36,820 bases of DNA from a phage, in sequence record PZ239915.1; one strand, given 5' to 3'. The notes below the pieces were generated by a model. It was not told the origin of the DNA. It saw only the letters and a program-made list of their open reading frames with translations, and made no database searches. The stretch's first letter is position 1, and every line of letters starts with the position of its first letter. Made by a program: the position numbers and the translations under genes. Below are positions 221 through 36,790 of the stretch, piece by piece.

Positions 221-640
221 ATGAATATTACAGATAAGGTCGATTACATTGAATTTTACCCTGGCCCGGTTAAGTCATGCCCTAAGGAGGATGACGAACA
301 AATCTTTTGCTCTGATTGGGTTAAGTATAACTACCCAGATATGGTATTTTTCCATTGCGTGAATGAGGGAAAGAAAACCATTGGTCAAGCAAGAAAAGAC
401 CAGGCTAAGGGGCTTCTAAAAGGCGTATCAGACTGTATGTTTCTTATTCCTGAATCACTTCGAGGTAAGTATCCTTTCGGGGCTATAGAGCTAAAGAGGG
501 CTGGCAAAACTCAAGCAAGTCCAGTCAGCGAAGAACAGAAAGCATTTCTGAAAAGTGTAGTGGAATCAGGCGGTTTCTCGGCAGTCGCCTACGGACGTGA
601 GGGTTTTCTTGCAGCATTCAAAGAAATGATTTCAAAATAG
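221..640 (+). CDS. VRR-NUC-like (PD-(D/E)xK) nuclease
   Basis: 139-aa ORF; GVSDCMFLIPE...GAIELKRAGKTQ...SEEQK pattern resembles the VRR-NUC D/E-K nuclease core; GGA RBS before the ATG. Confidence 0.6.
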   Translation: MNITDKVDYIEFYPGPVKSCPKEDDEQIFCSDWVKYNYPDMVFFHCVNEGKKTIGQARKDQAKGLLKGVSDCMFLIPESLRGKYPFGAIELKRAGKTQASPVSEEQKAFLKSVVESGGFSAVAYGREGFLAAFKEMISK

Positions 641-1481: not shown

Positions 1482-1669
1482 TTACTGCGACTTGCGTGCG
1501 TGCAAACGGCTCGTTTACTTTATTTGAGGATTACGAATTCAACTTTCATTCAGATGAGGTAACAGTATTGAGCGATGATGGGTGCTATTGGTTCGTTAGT
1601 TATCAAGGTGATGGTTATTACGGTTGCAGAGACGCGGAAGGAAAAGAAGTTAGTTTCTTAGTCGAGTAG
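1478..1669 (+). CDS. hypothetical protein (63 aa)
   Basis: ATGA overlap with the upstream gene; stop TAG sits inside the conserved palindromic box. Confidence 0.5.
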   Translation: MITATCVRANGSFTLFEDYEFNFHSDEVTVLSDDGCYWFVSYQGDGYYGCRDAEGKEVSFLVE

Positions 1670-1709
1670 CACTTTTTGTTAAAGCTCAAATCCAGGGATG
1701 GATTATATT
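1665..1709 (+). promoter_or_regulatory. conserved box variant + -10-like hexamer
   Basis: AGTAGCACTTTTTGTTAAAG, 22 bp, TATATT. Confidence 0.45.
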
Positions 1710-1739
1710 AAACACATCAACAACACAGAGGGTTAAGAG

Positions 1740-1865
1740 ATGAAAATTGCAGACAAAGAGATGTTCGAAATTGCACAAACTTATGCAAATGACGCAGTTA
1801 AAAACGGTTCAGAATGGTCATGGATGTGCGCCAAAGAATACCTAAAAATGGCTTACGGATTATGA
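1740..1865 (+). CDS. hypothetical protein (41 aa)
   Basis: Manual ORF downstream of a promoter box (1665-1709); ATGA overlap with the next gene. Confidence 0.35.
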   Translation: MKIADKEMFEIAQTYANDAVKNGSEWSWMCAKEYLKMAYGL

Positions 1866-2110
1866 TAGTAGAAACAGGACGAGCAGCCGTATGGGCGCAT
1901 TGTGGTGAAGCTGGATTGCAAGATGACATTAAGCAGATATCTAGATTCTTTGATATAAAAGATATCAGCGTCGTGTTCAATGGCAAATTCTCTTACATGG
2001 ATGAGCGCCCAAGAAAATACGTAAGAGTTAAGCCAGGCGTCAGGATTGATGTTAACGAGTTCCTTAAATCTGAGGGATTCAAGTTTAAGATAACGAAGCC
2101 TAAGGATTGA
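1862..2110 (+). CDS. hypothetical protein (82 aa)
   Basis: Track ORF 1814..2110 trimmed to the ATG at 1862 that overlaps the upstream TGA. Confidence 0.5.
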   Translation: MIVETGRAAVWAHCGEAGLQDDIKQISRFFDIKDISVVFNGKFSYMDERPRKYVRVKPGVRIDVNEFLKSEGFKFKITKPKD

Positions 2111-2364
2111 GTATGTTTGGTTTAGATTTTCAGCCAGAGCATTACGATTTAGTATATGGTCAAAGTGGTGCAAAGTTTAGAGCGATACCTATTGCTGATT
2201 GGTTCCCTCCTGATTATGTGGATGTGAACGCAAAAACTAAAGACGGGAAGTGGGTTCAGATTTACTACTCCCCAGCATGCGGAAACCTTTGTATGACTGA
2301 CCTTGATCAGAAATTAGCAATTAGTGCGGAAGTTATCGACTACTGGTTGAAAGAAGTTGAATGA
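2107..2364 (+). CDS. hypothetical protein (85 aa)
   Basis: Track ORF; ATGA-type junction with the upstream gene. Confidence 0.5.
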   Translation: MSMFGLDFQPEHYDLVYGQSGAKFRAIPIADWFPPDYVDVNAKTKDGKWVQIYYSPACGNLCMTDLDQKLAISAEVIDYWLKEVE

Positions 2365-2447
2365 AGAGCCTGATACTAGTAGCATTAGTCCAACTATTTA
2401 GCTTTACTATCTTATATTTTATCGTAATGAATTAAGGAACTTATATA

Positions 2448-3578
2448 ATGGCAACTGCAAAAATCACTAACGAACAATTGCGCGAAGAACTGGCTAATGG
2501 CATGACCAACAAGGCAATCGCAGAGAAGTATGGAATGAACATTCGCAACGTTGAATTGCGTCGCAGTAAGCTGGCAAAATCAGGCGAGCTTCATGGAAAC
2601 CCTGGTATCAAGAAGTTAGTCCCTGACGGTTATATGGTCAAAGGAACTTCAACGATGATTGACGCGGCGGGTAATGAAAAGCTTCGCTGGGTTAAAACCT
2701 CTGTAGATAATGAGCGCCTTGAGGTTTTAATGGAGCAAGCTAGAGAGGCATTTTGTTCTGAGTTGCCAAAAGCAGATGCGGTCAGCCACTCAGGCAACGA
2801 AGTTAACTCTGAATTAATGACTCTTTACCCTATTTTCGATATCCATATCGGCATGATGGCGCATCGCCATGAATCTGGTGAGAATTATGACACTAACACG
2901 GCAGAGAAATTAATGGAATCATATTTCGACCATGCAATTTCTGTATCACCTGCGTCAGAGAAAGCCGTTGTTTTAGTTGGCGGCGACTTCCTTCACTCTG
3001 ACGGATTGGAAGCTGTAACCCCAGCGAGCGGACACTGCCTTGATCAGGATAGCCGGTATGCTAAGTTAGTTTATGTTGCGATTCGATCGATTCGTGCCGC
3101 GGTAGAGAAGATGCTTAAGAAGCATAAGAATGTCGAGATTCAGATTATAGAGGGAAATCATGACCAAAGCGGCATGATCTGGCTTCGCGCTGCAATGGCT
3201 GCATTTTATGAAAACGAGAATCGCGTGTTTGTTGATACCAGTCCAGCAATCATGCACAAGACGCGATTTGGCTCAACATTACTTGGTTACACGCATGGTC
3301 ACACAATGAAGAAAGCCGAGGGTCGACTCGCAGCAATGGCGACCGACTACCGCAAAGACTTTGGTGAGTGTGAGTTTGTTTACTGCCACTCCGGGCATTT
3401 TCACCATGCAACTGTTACAGAGTGCACACTTGGTATTGACGAGGTTCACCCAGCACTGGCCAGTAAGGACGCATATGCCGCACGTGGAGGTTGGCGCTCA
3501 TACCGTCAAGCGGCTGCGATAGTTTACCACAAGAATTTTGGCGAGGTTGGTCGCCATATTTACCGCCCAGGCATGTAA
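2448..3578 (+). CDS. calcineurin-like metallophosphoesterase with N-terminal HTH domain
   Basis: Phosphoesterase motifs seen directly: DIHIG, GGDFLHSD, EGNHD, GYTHGH, HSGHFHH. N-terminal TNKAIAEKYGMNIRNVELRR resembles a helix-turn-helix. Stop TAA lies in a promoter box. Confidence 0.75.
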   Translation: MATAKITNEQLREELANGMTNKAIAEKYGMNIRNVELRRSKLAKSGELHGNPGIKKLVPDGYMVKGTSTMIDAAGNEKLRWVKTSVDNERLEVLMEQAREAFCSELPKADAVSHSGNEVNSELMTLYPIFDIHIGMMAHRHESGENYDTNTAEKLMESYFDHAISVSPASEKAVVLVGGDFLHSDGLEAVTPASGHCLDQDSRYAKLVYVAIRSIRAAVEKMLKKHKNVEIQIIEGNHDQSGMIWLRAAMAAFYENENRVFVDTSPAIMHKTRFGSTLLGYTHGHTMKKAEGRLAAMATDYRKDFGECEFVYCHSGHFHHATVTECTLGIDEVHPALASKDAYAARGGWRSYRQAAAIVYHKNFGEVGRHIYRPGM

Positions 3579-3622
3579 ATAGCACATTTTGTTAATAAAG
3601 CCTCAAAGGATTGAGGCAAAAT
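3578..3622 (+). promoter_or_regulatory. conserved box variant (weak -10)
   Basis: AATAGCACATTTTGTTAA, 22 bp, CAAAAT; spacer contains a hairpin. Confidence 0.3.
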
Positions 3623-3652
3623 GAATAAACGATAACGAGATGAGGAGTTATA

Positions 3653-4126
3653 ATGATTTACGTATTTGATATTGACGGAACTATAGCTAATAATGAGCAT
3701 AGAAATCACCTTTTACCATCCAGTGACCTTCACTTGACTTCAAGTTGGAAGTATTACAATAAAGCCTGTTCTGGAGACTCACCAATAATCCCAATGATAA
3801 ACATGATGAACAAACTTGCGGAATTATGTCCTGTTTACATAATGACATCCAGAAGTGATGAAGTTGAATGGAGAACCCTTGAGTGGCTTCAGGATAATGA
3901 GGTTGAGTATGATTCTATATACATGAGAAGTCGATATGACAACCGAAAAGATTACAAAATAAAAGAGGAATGGCTTAATGAAATCAGTGGTGGCGATAAA
4001 GGAAGTGTGGTTATTTTTGAAGATAACCCACAAGTAATTAAGCACCTAAGAAGTTGCGGATACACCGTTATGGCTGTATGTGAATATGAAGAACTACCTA
4101 AAGATTGCGAATCTCACGGAGAATGA
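3653..4126 (+). CDS. HAD-superfamily phosphatase/nucleotidase-like protein
   Basis: N-terminal FDIDGTI (DxDGT, HAD motif I); GAGGAG RBS. Confidence 0.55.
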   Translation: MIYVFDIDGTIANNEHRNHLLPSSDLHLTSSWKYYNKACSGDSPIIPMINMMNKLAELCPVYIMTSRSDEVEWRTLEWLQDNEVEYDSIYMRSRYDNRKDYKIKEEWLNEISGGDKGSVVIFEDNPQVIKHLRSCGYTVMAVCEYEELPKDCESHGE

Positions 4127-4128
4127 AA

Positions 4129-4683
4129 ATGACTAAATTATTTATCCTTAATGGCCCCGCTGGAGTTGGAAAGGACACTATAGCGGATATCATGGTTGAG
4201 ACTGGTGTAGCCAAAGAAAAGGTATCATTCAAGTCACCAATGTTTAACGTTGCAAAAGGAATGCTATCAAGCGATGAATTTGATGGATTCATCAAGAATT
4301 ACGACAATAGAGACTATAAGGAATCGCCTCATGGATTTCTTGGCGGTATGACAGTTCGTGAATTTATGATTTGGATTAGCGAGTCTGTAATGAAGCCAGT
4401 CTTTGGTGATGATATTTTCGGTAAAAGGCTAGCCAAGTCACTTGGTGATGGTTGCTACATTTGCGCTGATGGTGGATTTGCTAGCGAGATTAAGCCACTG
4501 ATCGACGCTGGTGTTGAGGTCACGTTAATCAGATTGCATAGGGCAGGGTACACATTTGATGGCGATAGTCGCTCATACATTCACGGGGTGTGCGCAAGAG
4601 AAATTGATGTTCGTGTTGTTGATTGTGATATTGATGGAACATCAGCATTGGTAAGGCACGTAATAAATAGCACGAATTGCTAA
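4129..4683 (+). CDS. P-loop kinase, deoxynucleoside-monophosphate-kinase-like
   Basis: Walker A GPAGVGKDT near the N-terminus, as in phage dNMP kinases. Start set at the ATG 6 nt after GGAGAA (track gave 4105). C-terminus NSTNC is encoded by the palindromic box. Confidence 0.55.
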   Translation: MTKLFILNGPAGVGKDTIADIMVETGVAKEKVSFKSPMFNVAKGMLSSDEFDGFIKNYDNRDYKESPHGFLGGMTVREFMIWISESVMKPVFGDDIFGKRLAKSLGDGCYICADGGFASEIKPLIDAGVEVTLIRLHRAGYTFDGDSRSYIHGVCAREIDVRVVDCDIDGTSALVRHVINSTNC

Positions 4684-4710
4684 AGATAATAATAAAAACT
4701 GAGTTATCAT
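4666..4710 (+). promoter_or_regulatory. conserved palindromic box + -10-like hexamer
   Basis: AATAGCACGAATTGCTAAAG, 22 bp, TATCAT. Confidence 0.45.
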
Positions 4711-4751
4711 TAACACATCGAAACGAGATGAAACAAAATAGGAAGCACAAA

Positions 4752-4928
4752 ATGACTAAAATGATTTATTGCACCAAAAACAACTCCAAGACGCTGCCAT
4801 TTACAGTTAACAAGCCGTACAATGCAGAGTATCAAGGTGACGGATACTACAAGATTTATGGCGACGATATGACGTGGATTTTAGCGCCGATTGATGGTTC
4901 GCTGGTTGAATTTATTATCGCAGACTAG
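4752..4928 (+). CDS. hypothetical protein (58 aa)
   Basis: Track ORF 4677..4928 trimmed to the ATG at 4752 after AGGAAG; promoter box and CATCGAAACGAGA leader upstream. Confidence 0.45.
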   Translation: MTKMIYCTKNNSKTLPFTVNKPYNAEYQGDGYYKIYGDDMTWILAPIDGSLVEFIIAD

Positions 4929-4954
4929 CGCATCTAAAACATAGCTTTACAAGT

Positions 4955-4983
4955 GGGGGGCCTTTTGGCTCCCCTTTTTTTTG
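4955..4983 (+). terminator. rho-independent terminator
   Basis: 8-bp GC-rich stem (GGGGGGCC/GGCTCCCC), 4-nt loop, then a 9-T run. Confidence 0.6.
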
Positions 4984-5047
4984 CTTCTTTTCCGAACAGG
5001 GCTACTGTATCATGTTTACACTAACTTAAACATTGACAAATAGACAA

Positions 5048-5275
5048 ATGGAGGATCACATGAGGGAAGTAATCAACGCCGCTACGGCGTCAACTGGAGG
5101 GGCAGCGGTAACTGGAGCGGCAACTGGTCAGATGACTATAGCAATAATCAGCCTTATCGCTTTAATCATTTTTGGTGCGTGGGGTGCTTACTGGAAGTTT
5201 AAGGATAGCCAGGCGATTCGGCGCGCTCTTGAATCAGGAGACTTAAAAACAGCAATCAAGATAAGGAGTAAGTAA
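5048..5275 (+). CDS. holin (possible dual-start holin/antiholin)
   Basis: Small protein with a hydrophobic stretch TIAIISLIALIIFGAWGAYW and a charged C-terminus, directly upstream of the endolysin. Two in-frame ATGs (MEDHM) four codons apart. Track start 5033 is a TTG. Confidence 0.6.
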   Translation: MEDHMREVINAATASTGGAAVTGAATGQMTIAIISLIALIIFGAWGAYWKFKDSQAIRRALESGDLKTAIKIRSK

Positions 5276-5761
5276 ATGAAGCAGAGGCTGCTAATTAGCG
5301 CGGCTACGGCTGCGGCAATATACATCGCAGCACAGCTTATTGAGCTCGTAGAGGGTGTGGAAAACAAGCCTTACATGGACATTGCTGGAATCCCTACTGT
5401 TTGCTCTGGCGTTACTGGCCCTGACGTTGTTTGGGGTAAGACCTACAGCAACAGGGAATGCCGGAACTTACTGGAGAAGCACATTCAGATTCATGCCAGG
5501 CATGTTCAGAATGCAGTTACCTACCCAATCGCACCTCAGACAAGAGCGGCTTTAATCAGCTTTAGCTACAACGTTGGTGGAAATGCGATGAGGAATTCAA
5601 CGGCAGTTCGACTTATTAATCAGGGTAAAGTTGAGCAGGGTTGCAATGCTCTCGGGATGTGGAATAAGGCTCGGGTTAACGGAAAGCTAAAGGTAGTTAA
5701 AGGCCTAGTTAACAGGAGAAACGAGGAGATTAAGTTATGCTTAAGTGGATTGCAGCGTTAG
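5276..5761 (+). CDS. SAR endolysin (GH24 lysozyme family)
   Basis: Gly/Ala-rich N-terminal signal-anchor-release segment LLISAATAAAIYIAAQLI followed by an E-x-D-x-T catalytic pattern (ENKPYMDIAGIPT); starts one nt after the holin stop. Confidence 0.8.
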   Translation: MKQRLLISAATAAAIYIAAQLIELVEGVENKPYMDIAGIPTVCSGVTGPDVVWGKTYSNRECRNLLEKHIQIHARHVQNAVTYPIAPQTRAALISFSYNVGGNAMRNSTAVRLINQGKVEQGCNALGMWNKARVNGKLKVVKGLVNRRNEEIKLCLSGLQR

Positions 5762-6126
5762 TAGTGTGCGTAGCTTTATCTGGATGCTCAGCAACAGATG
5801 CGCTGACTGGTTTGATTGGAAGTAAGCCGGAAATTAGCGCTCAGGCCGGAGCGGAAAACAATAAGGTTGGTGTTGGGTTAACGAACAAGGTTGACTCCAG
5901 CAGCTCCAGTGAAGCAACTGTTAAAGATTCTAAGGTTGGGTCACTGGATAGCTCGAGCGGGAAAAAGACTGCTGACAACTCGATTAAGGCATCTACAATC
6001 ACCGCAGAAAAGATTGAGATTACCAACAACGACTCATCCGCACTTCCATGGATTGGAACAGGAGCTATGGGGTTACTTGTTTTTATCCTCCTGACTGTAA
6101 TCTTAAGACGTAAAAAAGCCTCCTGA
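5737..6126 (+). CDS. unimolecular spanin (lipoprotein with C-terminal TMD)
   Basis: Lipobox LSGC at the N-terminus plus C-terminal transmembrane segment GLLVFILLTVIL and basic tail; overlaps the endolysin 3' end by 25 nt; AGGAGA RBS. Confidence 0.65.
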   Translation: MLKWIAALVVCVALSGCSATDALTGLIGSKPEISAQAGAENNKVGVGLTNKVDSSSSSEATVKDSKVGSLDSSSGKKTADNSIKASTITAEKIEITNNDSSALPWIGTGAMGLLVFILLTVILRRKKAS

Positions 6127-6142
6127 TGGAGGCTATATTTTT
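6112..6142. terminator. bidirectional terminator between convergent genes
   Basis: AAAAAA, GCCTCC/GGAGGC stem with TGAT loop, then TATATTTTT; sits between the spanin (+) and a minus-strand ORF. Confidence 0.55.
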
Positions 6143-6476
6143 AGCTAAATAACTCGTCGTCAGCCATTGTTCCTATATTCATCATCTCTTTTATGTACTT
6201 GCTTTCATAACCGTTAAGTGCCTCGAAGTTAAACCCAAATGGCCTATTCAAACTCCCCTTGCTAACAAACTCCCCGCACTTACCATCAATGTAACCCATA
6301 CTAAGCATCTTCGCGCAGAACTCTTTTGAAGCCGCGCTGCAAAACTCTCGATGTGATAAACCCGCTGCCTTGCTGAACCTCTCAGAGTCCTTATGCTGGT
6401 ATATGAATCTCGCCAAATGCTGGCGCGTGAAGTATGAATATGACTCGCAGAACTTAAATATATCGAGAAGAAACAA
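6141..6476 (-). CDS. hypothetical protein (TTG start)
   Basis: Track ORF. TTG start lies 5 nt after a GGGAGG inside the HNH gene 3' end. Alternative internal ATG at 6311. Confidence 0.35.
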   Translation of the reverse strand: MFLLDIFKFCESYSYFTRQHLARFIYQHKDSERFSKAAGLSHREFCSAASKEFCAKMLSMGYIDGKCGEFVSKGSLNRPFGFNFEALNGYESKYIKEMMNIGTMADDELFS

Positions 6477-6478
6477 AG

Positions 6479-7009
6479 CTACCTCCCGTGATTATCATGG
6501 TAAGAAAGCGAGATCTCAGCAGATTTTCTTGCGCATGCTGCATCAAAAATATTATCGTAATAACCAAGACTGGTAGTTTTCCCATTGACCCCTATCTGCG
6601 AAAAGTATTTTCCACGCTTATTTATTGTTACGCCAGATATTCCAGTCTTATTCCTCTTATTCATTGATAGGTTCTTCTGGTTGCATTGCCTTGACACCAG
6701 CCTTAGATTTTCAACTCTGTTGTCATTTCTTATGTGATTAATGTGATCAACTTGCATTCCTTCCGGTATACTTCCATTAATCATCTCCCATATAACCCTA
6801 TGAGCCATATATCTTTCCCCATATATACCAAGAAGTATATAACCACAACCTTTATCATCAAGGCATCCAGCTACCTTGCCAGCGTATTGGGTGTTGCACT
6901 TATTCATTGTTCTAACCTGAGAGAAGTGACTTAAAGGCCTTATTTTCCATATCAGTTTTCCATTTTTGTAATAAAAATATTCATGCCAGTTCATTTCCGC
7001 TAACTCCAT
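6479..7009 (-). CDS. HNH homing endonuclease with AP2-like DNA-binding domain
   Basis: VDHINHIRNDNRVENLR HNH motif; downstream GISGV...YFSQIGVNGK...LGYYD resembles an AP2 domain. Confidence 0.75.
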   Translation of the reverse strand: MELAEMNWHEYFYYKNGKLIWKIRPLSHFSQVRTMNKCNTQYAGKVAGCLDDKGCGYILLGIYGERYMAHRVIWEMINGSIPEGMQVDHINHIRNDNRVENLRLVSRQCNQKNLSMNKRNKTGISGVTINKRGKYFSQIGVNGKTTSLGYYDNIFDAACARKSAEISLSYHDNHGR

Positions 7010-7026
7010 CGTGTTTGCCTATGCAA

Positions 7027-7075
7027 ACAATAACAAAAGCCCACTAGGGGCTTTTAACAAAAAATGCTATTTATC
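7027..7075 (-). promoter_or_regulatory. conserved box variant + -10-like hexamer (minus strand)
   Basis: Minus strand reads TAAATAGCATTTTTTGTTAA, 22 bp containing a terminator hairpin, TATTGT. Confidence 0.4.
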
Positions 7076-7076
7076 A

Positions 7077-8660
7077 TCACCCAAGCAATCTCGGATTAAT
7101 GTAAACTTTATCACCAATCAGGCACGTGTAGTTTTTCTCGTCAAGCATTGGCAGCAAGTGATCTTTAATCTTCGTCATTACCCCCGCCTGGGCTTCGAAA
7201 GGTTTAACCTTGCGCGCCGCCTCGTATAGGGAGCGAATACCTACTACGCCCTTCCCATTTTTGCCTTGCTTGATCAGTATGTCAATCAGCTTGTTCATCT
7301 CTGCACTGTCACCAGCGTGACCAGCGGCGTTAGCAGATGAAAGGTAAGTTTTGCTCAGTTCATTAAATATAATTACAGCCTCCTGCATGGTATCAAGCTC
7401 AATCTCCCTGGACTTCCGCGGACTCCCGCCGTTAGGGTTGAACCAGTTACGAACAGTATGAAGAACAGCCGCAATCCTGATGGCCTGTTTATCAAACTTA
7501 CCCAGCGCGCCTCGCAACATTGTATGTGAATACTTCCCGCCATCAGCAAGGTGAGGTTCCATCTCCTGACGTGCTCGGTTGAGATACTTCATCGCTGAGT
7601 TGCTTACTGTCAGCTTAACATCTTGCTCATTCATTATTTCGTGAACCAGGCGGAAGTAGTCAGCCTTTAGCCCACCATCAATAGGTTCGTAAGTTGAGTC
7701 TCCATTTTCATCAACGAATACACGCTCGCCCAGGAATGACTTTTCACGCACCAGCAGAAAACGTTCCGATACACCGATACCTCGCGCACCAGCATTCATG
7801 ATTGCGTTTATTGTCTCATCTTGCGCAATTACAGAGATGCATCCCATAGCGACGAAACTCATGTTGTTTTCTGCGTTCGCACGCGCAATGGACACGTTAC
7901 CAGCATCCCATGCTTTCAGCACAAGCTCGCTGTTCGTTTTCTTCGAGCCATCACCATAGGTCATACCTAGCAGAGAGTTCACGCTCGTTGCTTCATCAGA
8001 GATAACTGCGAAGTTGCCCTGGCGGTTGTTTATTCGCGCAAGACCTTCAGGCGTCGTATCTGATACTGGAAATACGATATCGCAAAGTTTCTCGAGTTTT
8101 TCCTCTAGTTCCTCTTTCTCTTCGAAGAGAGAAGCCATTTCTGAAGGTGATTTCTCCTGCTTCATCTCTTTGGATAATGCAGATAGTTTAGCCATGATCT
8201 TTTTGCGCTCACGCTTCCGCAACTCATTCAGTCGCTCAGTCTCAGCAATCATTGGAGCAATTGAAAGTGAGTTGATTGCTGATTTACCTGTCGATGGCGG
8301 CTGACTGGTTACGACGTATAGAGAGGTCGGTTGCTGGGTTCCGTGATACTCAACAGTAAATCGCCCCAGCATGGAGGCAGAAATACACCCCAGAAAGTGC
8401 ATATAAGCTGAAGACTCTGGAAATTGAACCGAACGAGCAATATTGGCTGACAGTTTACCAACAACGTCAATATCATTGCCGAGTGAGATTACCGGGTATT
8501 TGTCATTTGCTGCATCAATCTCGACCGGAGCCTTCCAGAATGATTGGGACTGGCGATAGCCATTGGCATTAATGGCGACTCGCAGTGGCGGGAGGTTGTC
8601 TGCGGCAGCAATTGCCATAACCTGTTCAACAGATAGTTTATCTTCGTTGAAATCAAACAT
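7077..8660 (-). CDS. hypothetical 527-aa protein with P-loop-like core
   Basis: Long ORF; deviant Walker A TSQPPSTGKS and Walker-B-like FAVISDEAT in the central region. N- and C-terminal ~45 and ~75 aa are paralogous to the 174-aa protein at 11389..11913. Confidence 0.7.
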   Translation of the reverse strand: MFDFNEDKLSVEQVMAIAAADNLPPLRVAINANGYRQSQSFWKAPVEIDAANDKYPVISLGNDIDVVGKLSANIARSVQFPESSAYMHFLGCISASMLGRFTVEYHGTQQPTSLYVVTSQPPSTGKSAINSLSIAPMIAETERLNELRKRERKKIMAKLSALSKEMKQEKSPSEMASLFEEKEELEEKLEKLCDIVFPVSDTTPEGLARINNRQGNFAVISDEATSVNSLLGMTYGDGSKKTNSELVLKAWDAGNVSIARANAENNMSFVAMGCISVIAQDETINAIMNAGARGIGVSERFLLVREKSFLGERVFVDENGDSTYEPIDGGLKADYFRLVHEIMNEQDVKLTVSNSAMKYLNRARQEMEPHLADGGKYSHTMLRGALGKFDKQAIRIAAVLHTVRNWFNPNGGSPRKSREIELDTMQEAVIIFNELSKTYLSSANAAGHAGDSAEMNKLIDILIKQGKNGKGVVGIRSLYEAARKVKPFEAQAGVMTKIKDHLLPMLDEKNYTCLIGDKVYINPRLLG

Positions 8661-8690: not shown

Positions 8691-8741
8691 ATTATATCAA
8701 CGACCGCTTATAATGCGTTATCAATTTGTGCTATTTACAGG
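8691..8741 (-). promoter_or_regulatory. conserved box variant + -10 (minus strand)
   Basis: Minus strand reads TAAATAGCACAAATTGATAACG, 22 bp, TATAAT, upstream of the 527-aa gene. Confidence 0.5.
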
Positions 8742-9121: not shown

Positions 9122-9156
9122 TTTGTTTGCCCTTGCGTGTTTCGTTTCGATGAGAT

Positions 9157-9204
9157 GAATATACAGGAAAAGCCCCGAAGGGCTTTAGCAATTCGTGCTA
9201 TTTC
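9157..9204 (-). promoter_or_regulatory. conserved palindromic box + -10-like hexamer (minus strand)
   Basis: Minus strand reads AAATAGCACGAATTGCTAAAG, 23 bp containing a hairpin, TATATT, then CATCTCATCGAAACGAAAC leader. Confidence 0.45.
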
Positions 9205-10145: not shown

Positions 10146-10846
10146 ATCTATCCCCTCGTTGTTGATGAGTTAACTATAGCCACACCATACCATAATGTCT
10201 TTAGCAAAAAGTGCCATTCGTTAGATTTATGTATTGTTGCAGATATTGCAATGATTCACATGATTATTGCACATACAGCAATATTGCTTCAGATGCAATG
10301 ATGTTTTTGATTGTTGCGAGATTTGTAATGATTGATGCGTGAGGTGAATGAAAGATGGATGGACTACCATACAAGTTGATTTTACCAATCGATGAGCCAT
10401 TCTTGTGATATACGAGTAACCCACGTATACCAAGTGTCGTCACAAAAGTTAGTGGGCACTAACCTACGTTTTTACGCGAGATATACACACGATATACATT
10501 AAAATATCTATATATATCAACCTTTTACTTTATTATTATTATTATTATTATATATATGTATACTGCGTATACCGATCATTGGTGAGATAATTGATATGTT
10601 CCGCGCAGATATTCTGTCACCTGTAGGAAAAGGATGACACTGTAGGAATAGATAGGCATGCATGCGGCCTGGTGGGTAAAAAAGTGTATACACGGCGTAC
10701 GCGCAATATACATATAGAGATGATGCGGTGCTAGAGGCGGTTTTGCGTATTAGGTTAAAAATATACAAAGAAATACTTTGACTAACGCGTAAATCTGATG
10801 CAATATACCAATCACTGAAACGAAGTACACAACAACGAGGTTATAC
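10146..10846. promoter_or_regulatory. divergent intergenic control region (candidate operators/origin)
   Basis: About 700 bp with no credible ORF between divergent gene sets. Contains two ~24-bp repeats ATTGTTGC(A/G)AGAT(A/T)TTG(C/T)AATGATT at 10232 and 10309, palindromes GCAATATTGC and GTGTATACAC, a (TTA)7 tract at ~10530, and CTGTAGGAA x2 at 10621 and 10640. Confidence 0.5.
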
Positions 10847-11389: not shown

Positions 11390-11913
11390 TGTTTGATTTC
11401 AACGAAGACAAATTGACGGATGAACAGATTATGAGTATTGCAAAGCAGGATGGAATTCCACCGCTACGGATTGCAATCAATGCAAATGGGTATCGGCATG
11501 TTCAGCACCTCTGGGGCCAGCCTGATGCATCGGGAGTCTACATAGATGAAGAGCTGGGAGTTCTGATTAAGTTGATTAGGAAAATGGCAAGGAACGGGAG
11601 GGGAGTGGTGGGTGTCAAGTCTGTACACGAGGGCGCTCGCAAGATTAAGCCGTTCGTAGGACGCTTTGATGTCATGCGCATAATCAAGGATGAACTAATC
11701 CCAGCACTTGATAAGATGAATCTCACATGCCTCATTGGCGATAAGATTTATGTTCATCCGGCAATCATTGATGAGTACTGGCAGCCTAACTTCAAAACTT
11801 ACGAAGGTGAACATGCTAGTAGACTACCATACCACTTGCGGTACAGCGAGGAAGAGGTTGAGGTGGCCATTGAGTTCTATAGGAAAGCTAAATCACTACT
11901 GAATGGTAAATAG
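11389..11913 (+). CDS. short paralogue of the 527-aa protein (N- and C-terminal modules only)
   Basis: MFDFNEDKL...PPLRIAINANGYR and GRGVVGVKS...KPF...TCLIGDKIY match both ends of the 7077..8660 product; first 20 nt are identical to that gene's start. Confidence 0.6.
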   Translation: MFDFNEDKLTDEQIMSIAKQDGIPPLRIAINANGYRHVQHLWGQPDASGVYIDEELGVLIKLIRKMARNGRGVVGVKSVHEGARKIKPFVGRFDVMRIIKDELIPALDKMNLTCLIGDKIYVHPAIIDEYWQPNFKTYEGEHASRLPYHLRYSEEEVEVAIEFYRKAKSLLNGK

Positions 11914-11953
11914 CACTTTTTGCCTAACGCGGTAATGCCATGGATGGCATAAT
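11908..11953 (+). promoter_or_regulatory. conserved box variant + -10-like hexamer
   Basis: AAATAGCACTTTTTGCCTAA, 22 bp, CATAAT. Confidence 0.45.
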
Positions 11954-11992
11954 AGCCTCATCGAAACGAGATACGTAAATTAGGGATTTAAA

Positions 11993-12211
11993 ATGAGCAA
12001 GACAATCACGCTGCAATGCCTTAAGACAAATAATCCAGAGTTCTTAAAAGGTCACAAATATGTAGCAACTCTGGTAGACGGTAAAACATGGGCAGTTAAG
12101 GGGGGATTCCAGGATTACAAATTCCCACTCGAGCACATTCCTGGTGGAAATCTTGGTTTTGTTAGTAGCTGCCGCTCGGTTAAGTTCGTGTTTGAAGTGG
12201 TAATGAAATAG
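11993..12211 (+). CDS. hypothetical protein (72 aa)
   Basis: Track ORF preceded by promoter box, CATAAT and CATCGAAACGAGA leader. Confidence 0.5.
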   Translation: MSKTITLQCLKTNNPEFLKGHKYVATLVDGKTWAVKGGFQDYKFPLEHIPGGNLGFVSSCRSVKFVFEVVMK

Positions 12212-12251
12212 CACGAATTGCTAAACAATGGATCGGGTAGTCGGCTACGAT
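12206..12251 (+). promoter_or_regulatory. conserved palindromic box + -10-like hexamer
   Basis: AAATAGCACGAATTGCTAAAC, 22 bp, TACGAT. Confidence 0.4.
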
Positions 12252-13452: not shown

Positions 13453-13498
13453 AAATAGCACTAATTGCTAAGCCCGCTACGGCTGGTTTTGTTATAGT
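13453..13498 (+). promoter_or_regulatory. conserved palindromic box + -10-like hexamer
   Basis: AAATAGCACTAATTGCTA, 22 bp, TATAGT. Confidence 0.5.
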
Positions 13499-16641: not shown

Positions 16642-18207
16642 ATGTCTTTAGTATGGGAAGAAATGACCATTCAGGAAAAGATGGCCGTTAAGGCGATATC
16701 AGAACACAGCTTCGAGGGCTTTCTTCGTTGCTGGTTCCAGATCACGCAAGGCGAGCGATACATCCCTAACTGGCATCACAAGTACTTGTGCAGAATAATT
16801 GACGAGATTATCGCAGGAGAGCGCAAGGACACCATCATTAACATAGCACCAGGAAGCGGAAAGACGGAAATTGCCTCAATCCACTTCCCGGCCTATTCGA
16901 TGGTTAAGCTTAGGAAGGTGCGCAACCTTAACATCTCTTTTGCTGACTCCCTGGTTAAGCGTAACTCGAAGCGAGTACGTGACCTTATCAAGTCTCAAGA
17001 ATTTCAGTCACTCTGGCCATGCAAGTTTGGCACTTGCAAAGACGATGAGCTTCAGGTTCTTGATGAGAGTGGCAAGGTTAGATTTGAGTCAATATCAAAG
17101 GCGGCTGGAGGCCAGATTACTGGCGCTCGCGGTGGGTACATAACCGAAACATACAGCGGAGCCGTTCTTTTGGATGACTTTGACAAACCCGCAGATATGT
17201 TATCAGCAGTGTACCGCTCGAATAATCACGTAATGCTTAAAAATACGATTCGCTCACGTCGAGCCAGTTCTGTAAAAGGAAAAGCGACACCAATCATTTC
17301 GATACAGCAGCGGCTTCACGTCAATGACTCAACCTATTTCATGATGGAAGGCGGCATGGGTATAGAATTCGATTTGATTAAGATACCAGCATTAGTTACT
17401 GAGGATTACATTGATTCACTTCCTGACTGGATTAAAGATCAGTTTGCTGAGGACGTACTAAGCAGCGAATACATTGAGCGAGATGGCGTAAAGTACTACA
17501 GCTACTTTCCTAAAAAGGAATCCGTAAACGACCTGGTGGCAATGTGGGATAGCGACCCGTACACATTCCTTAGTCAATATCAGCAGGAGCCAGTAGCGCT
17601 GGGTGGCAACCTAATTAACGTGGACTGGTTCCAGAGAATCAGTGATACGTTCAGACCTCCAGCTAAGTACGACTATCGATTCATAACTTGCGATACCGCA
17701 ATGACCACTAAAAGTTACAGCGACTTCTCTGTTCTTCAGTTGTGGGGCTATAAAGATGCTAAGATTTACCTTATTGATCAGCGCAGGGGTAAATGGGAGG
17801 CCCCAGAGTTGGAGGCTGAACTGCTGGACTTCGAGAAGAAATCAAGGGCAACCAGTCAGTCAGATGGTATCCTCAGAAAGATTATTATCGAGAAGAAAGC
17901 GTCTGGTATAGGCCTGATTCAATCAGCTGGCAGGGTTATGCGAACACCGATAGAGCCATACGTACCGGATAATGACAAGCTAACCAGGGTGATGAGTGCA
18001 CTACCACAGATTAAGGCTGGTAACGTAGTTCTTCCAGAGTCATCGCCGTGGCTAAACGGATTGCTCACTGAGGTTGCGGCTTTTACGGCAGATGACTCGC
18101 ATAAGCACGACGACCAAATTGACTGTCTAACAATGGCGGCAAACCTTGTACTTAACATCGCGGATGATCCTAAGTCGAGACTGATGCGCATAGCTGGAAT
18201 GAAATAG
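16642..18207 (+). CDS. terminase large subunit
   Basis: 521 aa; Walker A APGSGKT in the N-terminal ATPase region, acidic nuclease-type C-terminal half; position before the portal. Confidence 0.85.
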   Translation: MSLVWEEMTIQEKMAVKAISEHSFEGFLRCWFQITQGERYIPNWHHKYLCRIIDEIIAGERKDTIINIAPGSGKTEIASIHFPAYSMVKLRKVRNLNISFADSLVKRNSKRVRDLIKSQEFQSLWPCKFGTCKDDELQVLDESGKVRFESISKAAGGQITGARGGYITETYSGAVLLDDFDKPADMLSAVYRSNNHVMLKNTIRSRRASSVKGKATPIISIQQRLHVNDSTYFMMEGGMGIEFDLIKIPALVTEDYIDSLPDWIKDQFAEDVLSSEYIERDGVKYYSYFPKKESVNDLVAMWDSDPYTFLSQYQQEPVALGGNLINVDWFQRISDTFRPPAKYDYRFITCDTAMTTKSYSDFSVLQLWGYKDAKIYLIDQRRGKWEAPELEAELLDFEKKSRATSQSDGILRKIIIEKKASGIGLIQSAGRVMRTPIEPYVPDNDKLTRVMSALPQIKAGNVVLPESSPWLNGLLTEVAAFTADDSHKHDDQIDCLTMAANLVLNIADDPKSRLMRIAGMK

Positions 18208-18247
18208 CACAAATTGCTAAACACTAAAGCCACGGATGGCGTATAGT
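18202..18247 (+). promoter_or_regulatory. conserved palindromic box + -10-like hexamer
   Basis: AAATAGCACAAATTGCTAAA, 22 bp, TATAGT; 29-bp block GTATAGTTACTTCACACAAACGAGAGGAG identical to 30239-30267. Confidence 0.5.
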
Positions 18248-29445: not shown

Positions 29446-30201
29446 ATGTTAAGTCCAAAGTTTGAAAATCAGTTGCAAAGCCTTTTCCCCGGAGAGATTG
29501 TTACTCTAATCCAGGTTGATGGAACCTCCTTTGGAAGTCTCGTTTACAACTTCCACAATGAGAACATTTCATACACGCCAGAAGAAATCATGCTAGCCCA
29601 AATGAATGGCGAGCCACTACCTGAGAAGACGATTACATTTCGCGGTGAAGAGTACGGGCCTCGACCATTTGGTATCTCGGGTATCAACATGACGTCTGAC
29701 GGCAAGGCCAACAAAGTTACGCTAACAGTATCAAACGTAGACCAGCGCATTAGCGCATTGATCCGTACCTATAATGGATTGGTTAAGGCAAAGGTCACCA
29801 TCTGGATTACTACGCGAGATAACATCAATGAAGACGGAAGCATTGCTGACGGGGACTATCGCAGATTCGTTTACTTCATTGAGCGACCAAAGCAGGTTGA
29901 CTACAAAACGGCATCATTTGAGCTAAGCAGCCCTATGGATATGGATGGCATTTACATTCCAGCGAGACTTGTTCAGTCTGTTTGCTATTGGGCTTCCAGG
30001 GGGTGGTATCGTAGCGGGAATGGTTGCGACTATGCTGGCAATCGTTATTTTAACAAGGATGACAATCCAGTTGATGACCCCTCTTTAGACTTCTGCGCTG
30101 GAACAGTAAACAGCTGTAAGATTAGGTTTGGTGAGAATAATCAGCTTTCATTTGGCGGATGCGCGGCAGCAAGCCTTCAGGCCAAAGCGAATCAGAGCTA
30201 A
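29446..30201 (+). CDS. minor tail protein (lambda gpL-like)
   Basis: 251 aa with a C-terminal Cys cluster (C-x...C-x...C-x4-C), consistent with the metal-binding C-terminus of L-type proteins. Confidence 0.65.
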   Translation: MLSPKFENQLQSLFPGEIVTLIQVDGTSFGSLVYNFHNENISYTPEEIMLAQMNGEPLPEKTITFRGEEYGPRPFGISGINMTSDGKANKVTLTVSNVDQRISALIRTYNGLVKAKVTIWITTRDNINEDGSIADGDYRRFVYFIERPKQVDYKTASFELSSPMDMDGIYIPARLVQSVCYWASRGWYRSGNGCDYAGNRYFNKDDNPVDDPSLDFCAGTVNSCKIRFGENNQLSFGGCAAASLQAKANQS

Positions 30202-30245
30202 ACAGCACGAATTGCTAAAGGAGATTTAAAAAGATGGGGTATAGT
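30201..30245 (+). promoter_or_regulatory. conserved palindromic box + -10-like hexamer
   Basis: AACAGCACGAATTGCTAAAG, 22 bp, TATAGT. Confidence 0.5.
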
Positions 30246-36703: not shown

Positions 36704-36743
36704 TTTGTATTCCTTAGTAATTTCGTTTCGTTTCGATGGAGTA

Positions 36744-36790
36744 ATAATACAACCGTCAGTGAGGAATGTCTTTAGCTATTCGTGCTATTG
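36744..36790 (-). promoter_or_regulatory. conserved box variant + -10-like hexamer (minus strand)
   Basis: Minus strand reads AATAGCACGAATAGCTAAAG, 23 bp, TATTAT, then CCATCGAAACGAAACGAAA leader before the lipoprotein gene. Confidence 0.45.

Follow-up and report, generated by a model that had tools for sequence, protein, structure and literature searches.

In phage T4, breakdown of the host DNA to deoxynucleoside monophosphates (dNMPs) feeds phage DNA synthesis, and gp46/47 act upstream of the gp1 dNMP kinase in this pathway. Phage T5 also carries a dNMP kinase, and its A1 protein, annotated as involved in host DNA degradation, has been described as an N-terminal DNA-binding domain joined to a C-terminal nuclease. 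In a mycobacteriophage, host DNA is degraded by the metallophosphoesterase (MPE) Gp48 (PMC12287305). T1 and TLS likewise degrade the DNA of their host and re-use its nucleotides, through genes that have not been identified (PMC11447400). The window analyzed here, a stretch of phage DNA of 36,820 nucleotides (nt; PZ239915.1), contains three consecutive genes, termed A, B, and C, which encode a helix-turn-helix (HTH) metallophosphoesterase, a stand-alone HAD phosphatase, and a predicted dNMP kinase. The genes are real, their domains can be identified, their active sites are intact, their folds have known neighbors, and their order is conserved across several phage groups. Tentatively, they may form a salvage branch that leads from host DNA to deoxynucleoside triphosphates (dNTPs).

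2448..3578, plus strand: gene A, HTH-metallophosphoesterase, 376 amino acids (aa); equivalent to SU57_00063, T1 gp16, and rtp61
3653..4126, plus strand: gene B, stand-alone HAD phosphatase of the Pnkp phosphatase-domain type, 157 aa; equivalent to SU57_00064
4129..4683, plus strand: gene C, predicted dNMP kinase of the T4 gp1 type, 184 aa; equivalent to SU57_00065 and T1 gp62

Over the 2.5 kb around these genes, the window shares 99.9% identity with Escherichia phage vB_EcoD_SU57 (Drexlerviridae, Braunvirinae) and about 90–98% with several other T1-like phages. The SU57 record labels the three proteins "hypothetical protein" (SU57_00063), "polynucleotide kinase/phosphatase" (SU57_00064), and "ATPase" (SU57_00065). 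Their counterparts in phage ACG-M12 are gp18, gp16, and gp15, of which gp18 is noted in the record as "similar to rtp61" and gp15 as "similar to T1p62". Homologues of A fall into 4,695 clusters (formed at 50% identity) at E ≤ 1e-3, including 1,060 at ≤ 1e-30, and among 50,697 phage records there are 2,018 with a match to A, 1,252 to B, and 1,446 to C. This wide conservation, together with the near-identity to SU57, means that the genes are not chance open reading frames (ORFs). All three ORFs lie where a preliminary description of the region, made from the sequence alone, had placed them and contain the motifs that it listed. Its domain calls, namely an HTH with a calcineurin-type phosphoesterase, a HAD phosphatase, and a P-loop protein resembling dNMP kinases, were borne out by Pfam, alignment, and fold, and no well-characterized phage protein with an unrelated role was matched by the motifs. 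Within the T1-like phage family the set is nothing unusual: it is conserved and annotated, and the literature has already dealt with it. Across the Drexlerviridae the exonuclease gene is persistent (508 of 522), and the polynucleotide kinase (PNK) and dNMP kinase genes are the commonest ones after it; a role in nucleotide supply has been proposed for this PNK and dNMP kinase pair (PMC13164509).

Protein A is built of three parts, which correspond to the following stretches of the gene.

2469..2579, plus strand: three-helix HTH of the sigma-70 region 4 or LuxR-GerE type, A residues 8–44 (AlphaFold2, and Pfam in homologues)
2631..2756, plus strand: family-specific beta-hairpin (VKGxST...WVKT) and helix, A residues 62–103 (alignment and AlphaFold2)
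2805..3575, plus strand: metallophosphoesterase core, A residues 120–376, with DxH at 131–133, GDFLH at 179–183, GNHD at 236–239, H283, and GHFHH at 316–320

By its sequence motifs, A is a calcineurin-like metallophosphoesterase with an intact active site. In an alignment of 48 diverse homologues (30–72% identical), D131, H133, G179-D180, N237-H238, H283, G316, and H319 are invariant and H317 is nearly so; because the full set of di-metal ligands is kept, the enzyme is predicted to be active and of the calcineurin type. Conservation extends to features specific to the family. G75 and W81 are nearly invariant in the hairpin between the HTH and the core, and T191 and D199 are invariant in a loop (residues 186–205; TPxSGHxLDxDxRY) that separates motif II from motif III. 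The AlphaFold2 model made from this alignment (predicted local distance difference test score, pLDDT, 89.3; predicted template modeling score, pTM, 0.74) consists of a three-helix bundle (8–44), a long hairpin (62–86), a helix (88–103), and the MPE core (120–376).

The N-terminal HTH is real at the level of the family and, by sequence and model, a domain of the DNA-binding type. Its three helices (residues 8–16, 21–28, and 32–44) are predicted with a pLDDT of about 90. Among the 48 homologues, Pfam finds Sigma70_r4_2 in eight (best E value 1.5e-9), GerE in four (best 2.4e-8), and HTH_8, HTH_23, and others, whereas A itself matches GerE only at E = 0.048. A profile search of the PDB with this segment gave RhlR, GerE, DesR, FixJ, and sigma-H, which are consistent with one another but each weak.

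The predicted fold of the core is clearly that of an MPE and is closest to the Mre11/SbcD and PolD-DP1 nucleases; a Foldseek search with the model independently ranked Mre11 chains first. As one of its options, the preliminary description had proposed that A acts on signaling nucleotides or nucleic-acid ends. With Mre11/SbcD and DP1 as the top folds, the structure leans toward action on nucleic acid. At the level of sequence, support for any particular MPE subfamily is weak. A matches phrog_704, labeled "DNA repair exonuclease", at 4.9e-152, but scores 15.2 bits against Pfam PF00149 (Metallophos), for which the gathering cut-off is 21.5; 11 of the 48 homologues match that family at E < 0.01. 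In one PDB alignment, itself a weak match, the motif II sequence GDFLH is common to A and the PdeM/MPE nuclease. NCBIfam returned a weak PdeM fragment (TIGR04123) and matches to the FixJ/TtrR HTH and nothing else, and searches of A, B, and C against PDB sequences gave marginal matches only.

Similarity to the Mre11 and DP1 group, which includes SbcD and T4 gp47, is confined to the fold of the nuclease domain: sequence identity to A is 12–14%, and there is no match at the family level. Mre11/SbcD carry a C-terminal capping domain, whereas in the model of A nothing follows the final strands of the MPE core, which reach residue 372 of 376. Mre11 and DP1 act with a partner, Rad50/SbcC or DP2, and no such partner is annotated anywhere in the genomes of SU57 and T1. 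Unlike these enzymes, A has an N-terminal module of HTH and beta-hairpin.

In architecture, A resembles the A1 protein of T5, in which an N-terminal HTH-type domain (found by Pfam in homologues) is likewise followed by a C-terminal, MPE-like pattern of invariant residues. A1 differs in being a 556-aa product of a pre-early gene that is also needed for DNA transfer. Homology between the two was not demonstrated: a hidden Markov model comparison gave 1.5 bits, and hhalign gave probabilities of 15% with a single sequence and 25% with a 27-sequence profile, the latter over 23 columns around motif III. Because the profile comparison is not significant, A1 is an architectural analogue of A only. Within the A1 family (T5 1706–3376, minus strand), D304-x-H306, H339-D340, N396-H397, H476, and H501-x-H503 are invariant, and D398 and H478 are nearly so, a pattern of the MPE type that seems not to have been described before. 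The A1 catalytic domain escapes both Pfam and PDB sequence profiles; a search of the PDB with the A1 profile found no MPE. The MPEs of cluster A mycobacteriophages (A10ZJ24 Gp48 and Bxb1 gp47) are phage MPEs as well, and Gp48 has both phosphodiesterase and DNase activity (PMC12287305). Unlike A, they are about 255 aa long and have no HTH, and the similarity is at the superfamily level only; homology of A to MPEs of the Bxb1 gp47 type was rejected at an hhalign probability of 8%.

Protein B is, by its sequence, a stand-alone capless HAD phosphatase of the Pnkp phosphatase-domain type. The DxDxT motif of HAD phosphatases is present as FDIDGTI at residues 5–11, and the Pfam HAD_PNKP profile matches at 4.9e-16 almost from end to end (about positions 4–139 of 143). 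B also matches phrog_415 (1.9e-51) and, weakly, Pnkp1 (PDB 4xrp). Compared with T4 Pnkp and Pnkp1, B matches the HAD phosphatase domain nearly end to end, including DxDxT, but consists of this domain alone (157 aa), without the fused P-loop domain of a 5ʹ-polynucleotide kinase. Since B has no kinase domain and its neighbor C resembles dNMP kinases, the database label "polynucleotide kinase" for B is a misnomer; if this is right, a routine mislabeling of the stand-alone phosphatase would be corrected.

Protein C contains the P-loop GPAGVGKDT and, as judged from its model, is predicted to be a dNMP kinase like T4 gp1 rather than a polynucleotide kinase. Its best structural match is the T4 dNMP kinase (PDB 1DEK), to which it is 18% identical, with 184 aa against the 240 residues of the 1DEK chain, and it matches phrog_139. 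A profile search of the PDB with C yielded P-loop noise only and no detectable match to 1DEK. Beyond the P-loop, R61, K64, R77, S84-E85, D114-G116-F117, and D146-S147-R148 are invariant, a pattern that would fit a nucleoside monophosphate kinase with a lid. B is preceded by a ribosome-binding site (GAGGAG, 3642–3647). C, which ends at 4683, most likely begins at ATG 4129, the start used in the SU57 record, which lies 7 nt downstream of GGAG (4118–4121) and 2 nt past the stop codon of B; the TTG at 4105 is a mechanical ORF start only. Because C starts so close to the end of B, the two may be translationally coupled.

The order A-B-C recurs in Braunvirinae, in Klebsiella Webervirus, in the unclassified Yersinia myophage 526-1, whose A is 39% identical to that of the window, and in Erwinia phage phiEa100 (Autographiviridae). 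B and C adjoin in every phage examined in which both were found, interrupted only by homing HNH genes. In a metagenomic sequence, a distant homologue of A (39% identical) heads a same-strand string of genes that ends with a P-mevalo_kinase/dNMP-kinase-like gene and sits beside thymidylate synthase; in phage RcLkye, ThyX lies near the A homologue. In phiEa100 (3998–7200), an exonuclease and endonuclease VII precede A-B-C, and a DNA ligase follows directly. Linkage of A–C in several unrelated phages fits the module for nucleotide metabolism or nucleic-acid ends that the preliminary description had proposed.

Within such a module, the arrangement favored here, at somewhat less than an even chance, is that this virulent T1-like phage salvages host DNA into dNTPs: A would be an HTH-tethered DNase, C would recycle 5ʹ-dNMPs, and B would remove 3ʹ-phosphates. 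A would be a metal-dependent phosphodiesterase with an Mre11/SbcD/DP1-like core, most likely a DNase acting on host (or replicating) DNA, on which the N-terminal HTH would hold it. C would convert the released 5ʹ-dNMPs to deoxynucleoside diphosphates (dNDPs), and host Ndk would turn these into dNTPs for phage replication. B would clear 3ʹ-phosphates from DNA ends, or 3ʹ-nucleotides, that block exonucleolysis, priming, or phosphorylation. The substrates, the DNase activity, host DNA as the target, and the coupling of the steps into a pathway are what this proposal would add to the observed genes, folds, and gene order. No DNA polymerase gene is annotated in the T1 or SU57 genomes.

Several points weigh against the salvage branch. 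MPE nucleases leave 3ʹ-OH ends, so that there is no obvious need for a 3ʹ-phosphatase, and B is the weakest link of the model for this reason. A has neither the capping domain of Mre11 nor a Rad50/SbcC partner, and the nucleases outrank small-molecule phosphodiesterases as its fold neighbors by only a small margin (MJ0936, 13.8; LpxH, 13.1; Rv0805, 12.1). Additionally, T1 has A (gp16) by the lysis genes and B-HNH-C (gp64-63-62) elsewhere, and SECphi4 and RcLkye have A without B-C. Among Salmonella phages, A is present in 373 records, B in 22, and C in 43, which shows that most of these phages have A but neither B nor C. As A often occurs without B and C, its function cannot depend on either. 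Host DNA could also be degraded by other nucleases, including a RecE-like exonuclease (in the SU57 record, outside the window) and the VRR-NUC and HNH proteins in the window.

A bolder form of the proposal, which is unlikely, is that A destroys the host chromosome and forms with T5 A1 a class of HTH-tethered, Mre11-like DNases, while B and C yield replication precursors and remove alarm signals of the dNMP type (m6-dAMP). If A is a nuclease of host DNA, a function of T1 known since the 1960s–80s would gain a gene; T1 mutants impaired in this breakdown are better at transduction. This would also annotate a very large phage family (>4,600 clusters at 50% identity; ~4% of sequenced phages), the members of which now go by discordant labels: "hypothetical", "DNA repair exonuclease", "wHTH protein", and "DNA polymerase II small subunit". 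T1-like phages are common candidates for therapy as well as laboratory contaminants, and how their replication is fed, and how they meet defenses that sense or deplete nucleotides, is of practical value. Literature searches linking Drexlerviridae with "metallophosphoesterase", or combining phosphoesterase and polynucleotide kinase in T1-like phages, returned no match, and no mention of a phosphoesterase was found in studies of SECphi-phage escape.

Of the other explanations, the one that survives best, although itself unlikely, is that there is no pathway: A, B, and C would be independent accessory genes of DNA metabolism at the end of the early/middle region, with A in a role unrelated to B and C, such as the processing of replication or recombination ends, as with Bxb1 gp47. 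This would agree with the status of A as a persistent core gene beside the variable B and C (PMC13164509), with the many lineages in which A stands alone, and with the separation of the genes in T1. It would also agree with the insertion of HNH homing genes between the three and with the promoter-like box and hairpin, described below, that lie between A and B. Against it stands the recurrence of A-B-C in a siphovirus family, a podovirus family, and a myophage in which the A proteins are only 39–41% identical; over such distances, a shared order is not easily accounted for unless the genes were selected to stay linked or were transferred together.

An end-healing or repair role is quite unlikely. 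A would then serve as a 2ʹ,3ʹ-cyclic phosphodiesterase or end-trimming nuclease, like the MPE domain of Clostridium thermocellum Pnkp, B as the 3ʹ-phosphatase, and C as the 5ʹ-kinase, before a ligase seals the ends of phage DNA or of host tRNA cut by defense nucleases. Between them, a P-loop kinase and an adjacent HAD phosphatase have the domains of T4 Pnkp, on two proteins rather than one; B is a member of the Pnkp phosphatase family with a weak match to Pnkp1 of an RNA-repair system, and A weakly matches the ligase-associated nuclease MPE/PdeM. The ligase directly after A-B-C in phiEa100 would fit this role, but may only mirror the clustering of DNA-metabolism genes, and neither SU57 nor T1 encodes a DNA or RNA ligase. 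Moreover, the fold of C is nearest to dNMP kinase, and on this ranking C was rejected as the kinase half of a split Pnkp.

It is improbable that the proteins remodel small molecules, with A and B as a phosphohydrolase cascade on free nucleotides, or with A destroying immune signaling nucleotides, and C rebalancing the dNMP and dNDP pools, for example to counter dNTP-depleting defenses or to remove alarm signals of the m6-dAMP type. T5 carries both a 5ʹ-dNMP phosphatase and a dNMP kinase, and phosphodiesterases of cyclic nucleotides and diesters (Rv0805, GpdQ, MJ0936) are close fold neighbors of A, yet the top fold matches are nucleases. A DNA-binding-type HTH is kept throughout the A family, for which an enzyme of soluble nucleotides would have no need, and B is a capless HAD, a type that usually acts on macromolecular ends. 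The nearest precedent for such a cascade is the host defense system PUA-Calcineurin-CE-HAD. Here a calcineurin-type and a HAD phosphatase act in turn on deoxynucleotides, a proven two-step cascade from dNTP through dNDP to dNMP (bioRxiv 2026.01.15.699771). In a comparison at the superfamily level only, that system differs from A–C in having a PUA sensor where A has an HTH and in lacking a kinase; A has no PUA domain. A PADLOC scan gave no match for A–C and none to a system of this kind, which its library predates.

The window also contains a repeated box, AATAGCACnnnTTGYTAA, in 14 copies with at most two mismatches (0.19 expected), always oriented with local transcription.

636-653, 1665-1682, 3578-3595, 4666-4683, 11909-11926, 12207-12224, 13454-13471, 18203-18220, 30201-30218, plus strand: boxes
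7054-7071, 8718-8735, 9185-9202, 10201-10218, 36772-36789, minus strand: boxes

Boxes stand in front of transcription units of every class (replication, early, lysis, and structural), that of A among them. From TTGNTA to a TATAGT-like hexamer the distance is exactly 22 nt in 12 of the 14 and 23 nt in the other two, a spacer too long for TTGCTA to be a sigma-70 −35 element. T1 has 21 copies. Loci of A homologues from other phage groups, including the Autographiviridae phage, have no box; members of the Autographiviridae carry their own RNA polymerase. The repeat is known in TLS, T1, and Rtp, where its role is unknown; a stoperator, an enhancer site, and an UP element have been offered (PMC11447400).

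The boxes resemble the marbox. The form AYnGCACnnWnnRYYAAAY (PMC3709825) occurs with at most one mismatch at 13 places (0.82 expected), and the form gcannwwntgnnaaa, derived by chromatin immunoprecipitation, occurs exactly at 13 places (0.75 expected). The boxes lie in the forward orientation with the core centered at about −40 relative to the TATAGT-like hexamer, transcription starts being assumed; a forward marbox centered between −36 and −55 defines class II (PMC12052159), and the micF marbox, which reads CACT-7N-AAA, lies at about −41 (PMC8811837). As far as sequence can tell, these are asymmetric sites of the kind bound by monomeric activators with two HTHs (MarA, SoxS, Rob, RamA), and T1-like phages might possibly use host activators of the Rob/MarA/SoxS type. 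A marbox link for T1-like boxes was not met in the literature, no search having been aimed at it. These marbox-like promoters are more surprising than the gene set A–C.

It is highly improbable that A acts chiefly as a transcription factor, with its HTH binding the boxes, which the preliminary description had taken to be palindromic. In favor of this idea, the HTH belongs to the sigma-region-4/LuxR class, members of which often bind near −35/−42, several phages have A next to lysis and packaging genes, where late activators are usually found, and a box directly follows its stop codon. Against it, the boxes are asymmetric and match the marbox exactly at a class II position (PMC12052159, PMC8811837), homologues of A occur at loci that have none, the catalytic residues of A are invariant, and boxes front every type of unit, including that of A itself, so that A cannot be needed to start their use.

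Three of the boxes lie within or near A–C.

1665..1682, plus strand: box nearest upstream of A, one mismatch, with TATATT 22 nt after TTGTTA
3578..3622, plus strand: promoter-like element for B-C, comprising the box at 3578–3595, a hairpin at 3600–3617, and CAAAAT at 3617–3622, spacing 22 nt
4666..4683, plus strand: box overlapping the last codons of C, which serves the DUF7244 (SH3)-holin-endolysin-spanin unit and not A–C

The box at 1665 is probably the promoter of the transcription unit that contains A; the 83-nt gap directly upstream of A has neither a box nor a sigma-70-like site. The box at 3578–3595 begins directly after the stop codon of A, and T1 gp16 has one at the same position. With a box promoter and embedded hairpin between A and B, B-C would have a putative promoter of its own. 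About 50 nt downstream of five boxes, just past the −10-like hexamer, lies an exact 11-mer, CATCGAAACGA (5 copies against 0.66 expected), and related variants, CATCAACAAC/CACACAAACGA, follow other boxes. The 11-mer is probably a conserved transcript start or leader.

686-696, 4716-4726, 11959-11969, plus strand: CATCGAAACGA sites
9142-9152, 36728-36738, minus strand: CATCGAAACGA sites

Genes A–C are preceded by a helicase, a VRR-NUC protein, and small ORFs and followed by the DUF7244 (SH3), holin, endolysin, and spanin genes. Other features of the surrounding region are as follows.

221-640, plus strand: VRR-NUC nuclease (Pfam 2.1e-7)
4752-4928, plus strand: DUF7244 (SH3-like) gene, 58 aa, between kinase C and holin (Pfam 1.4e-29)
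6479-7009, minus strand: homing endonuclease with HNH_3 and AP2 domains (Pfam 6.4e-21; phrog_99), labeled "hypothetical" in SU57
7077-8660, minus strand: DUF3987 helicase (Pfam 3.4e-41; phrog_2373)

The SH3 gene was found together with the PNK and dNMP kinase pair in only seven Drexlerviridae in a 2026 study, so that this genome holds a rare combination. The VRR-NUC nuclease and the DUF3987 helicase, which flank the region, could be alternative candidates for host DNA breakdown. HNH genes also occur in this region in relatives, between A and B in ACG-M12 and, in T1, both following A and separating B from C, which suggests that homing endonucleases have repeatedly inserted around A-B-C. GC-rich, terminator-like hairpins lie within the 22-nt spacer between box and −10 hexamer at 3600–3617, 7034–7056, about 9160–9180, and about 13472–13490, so that a terminator and the next promoter are interleaved at these places.

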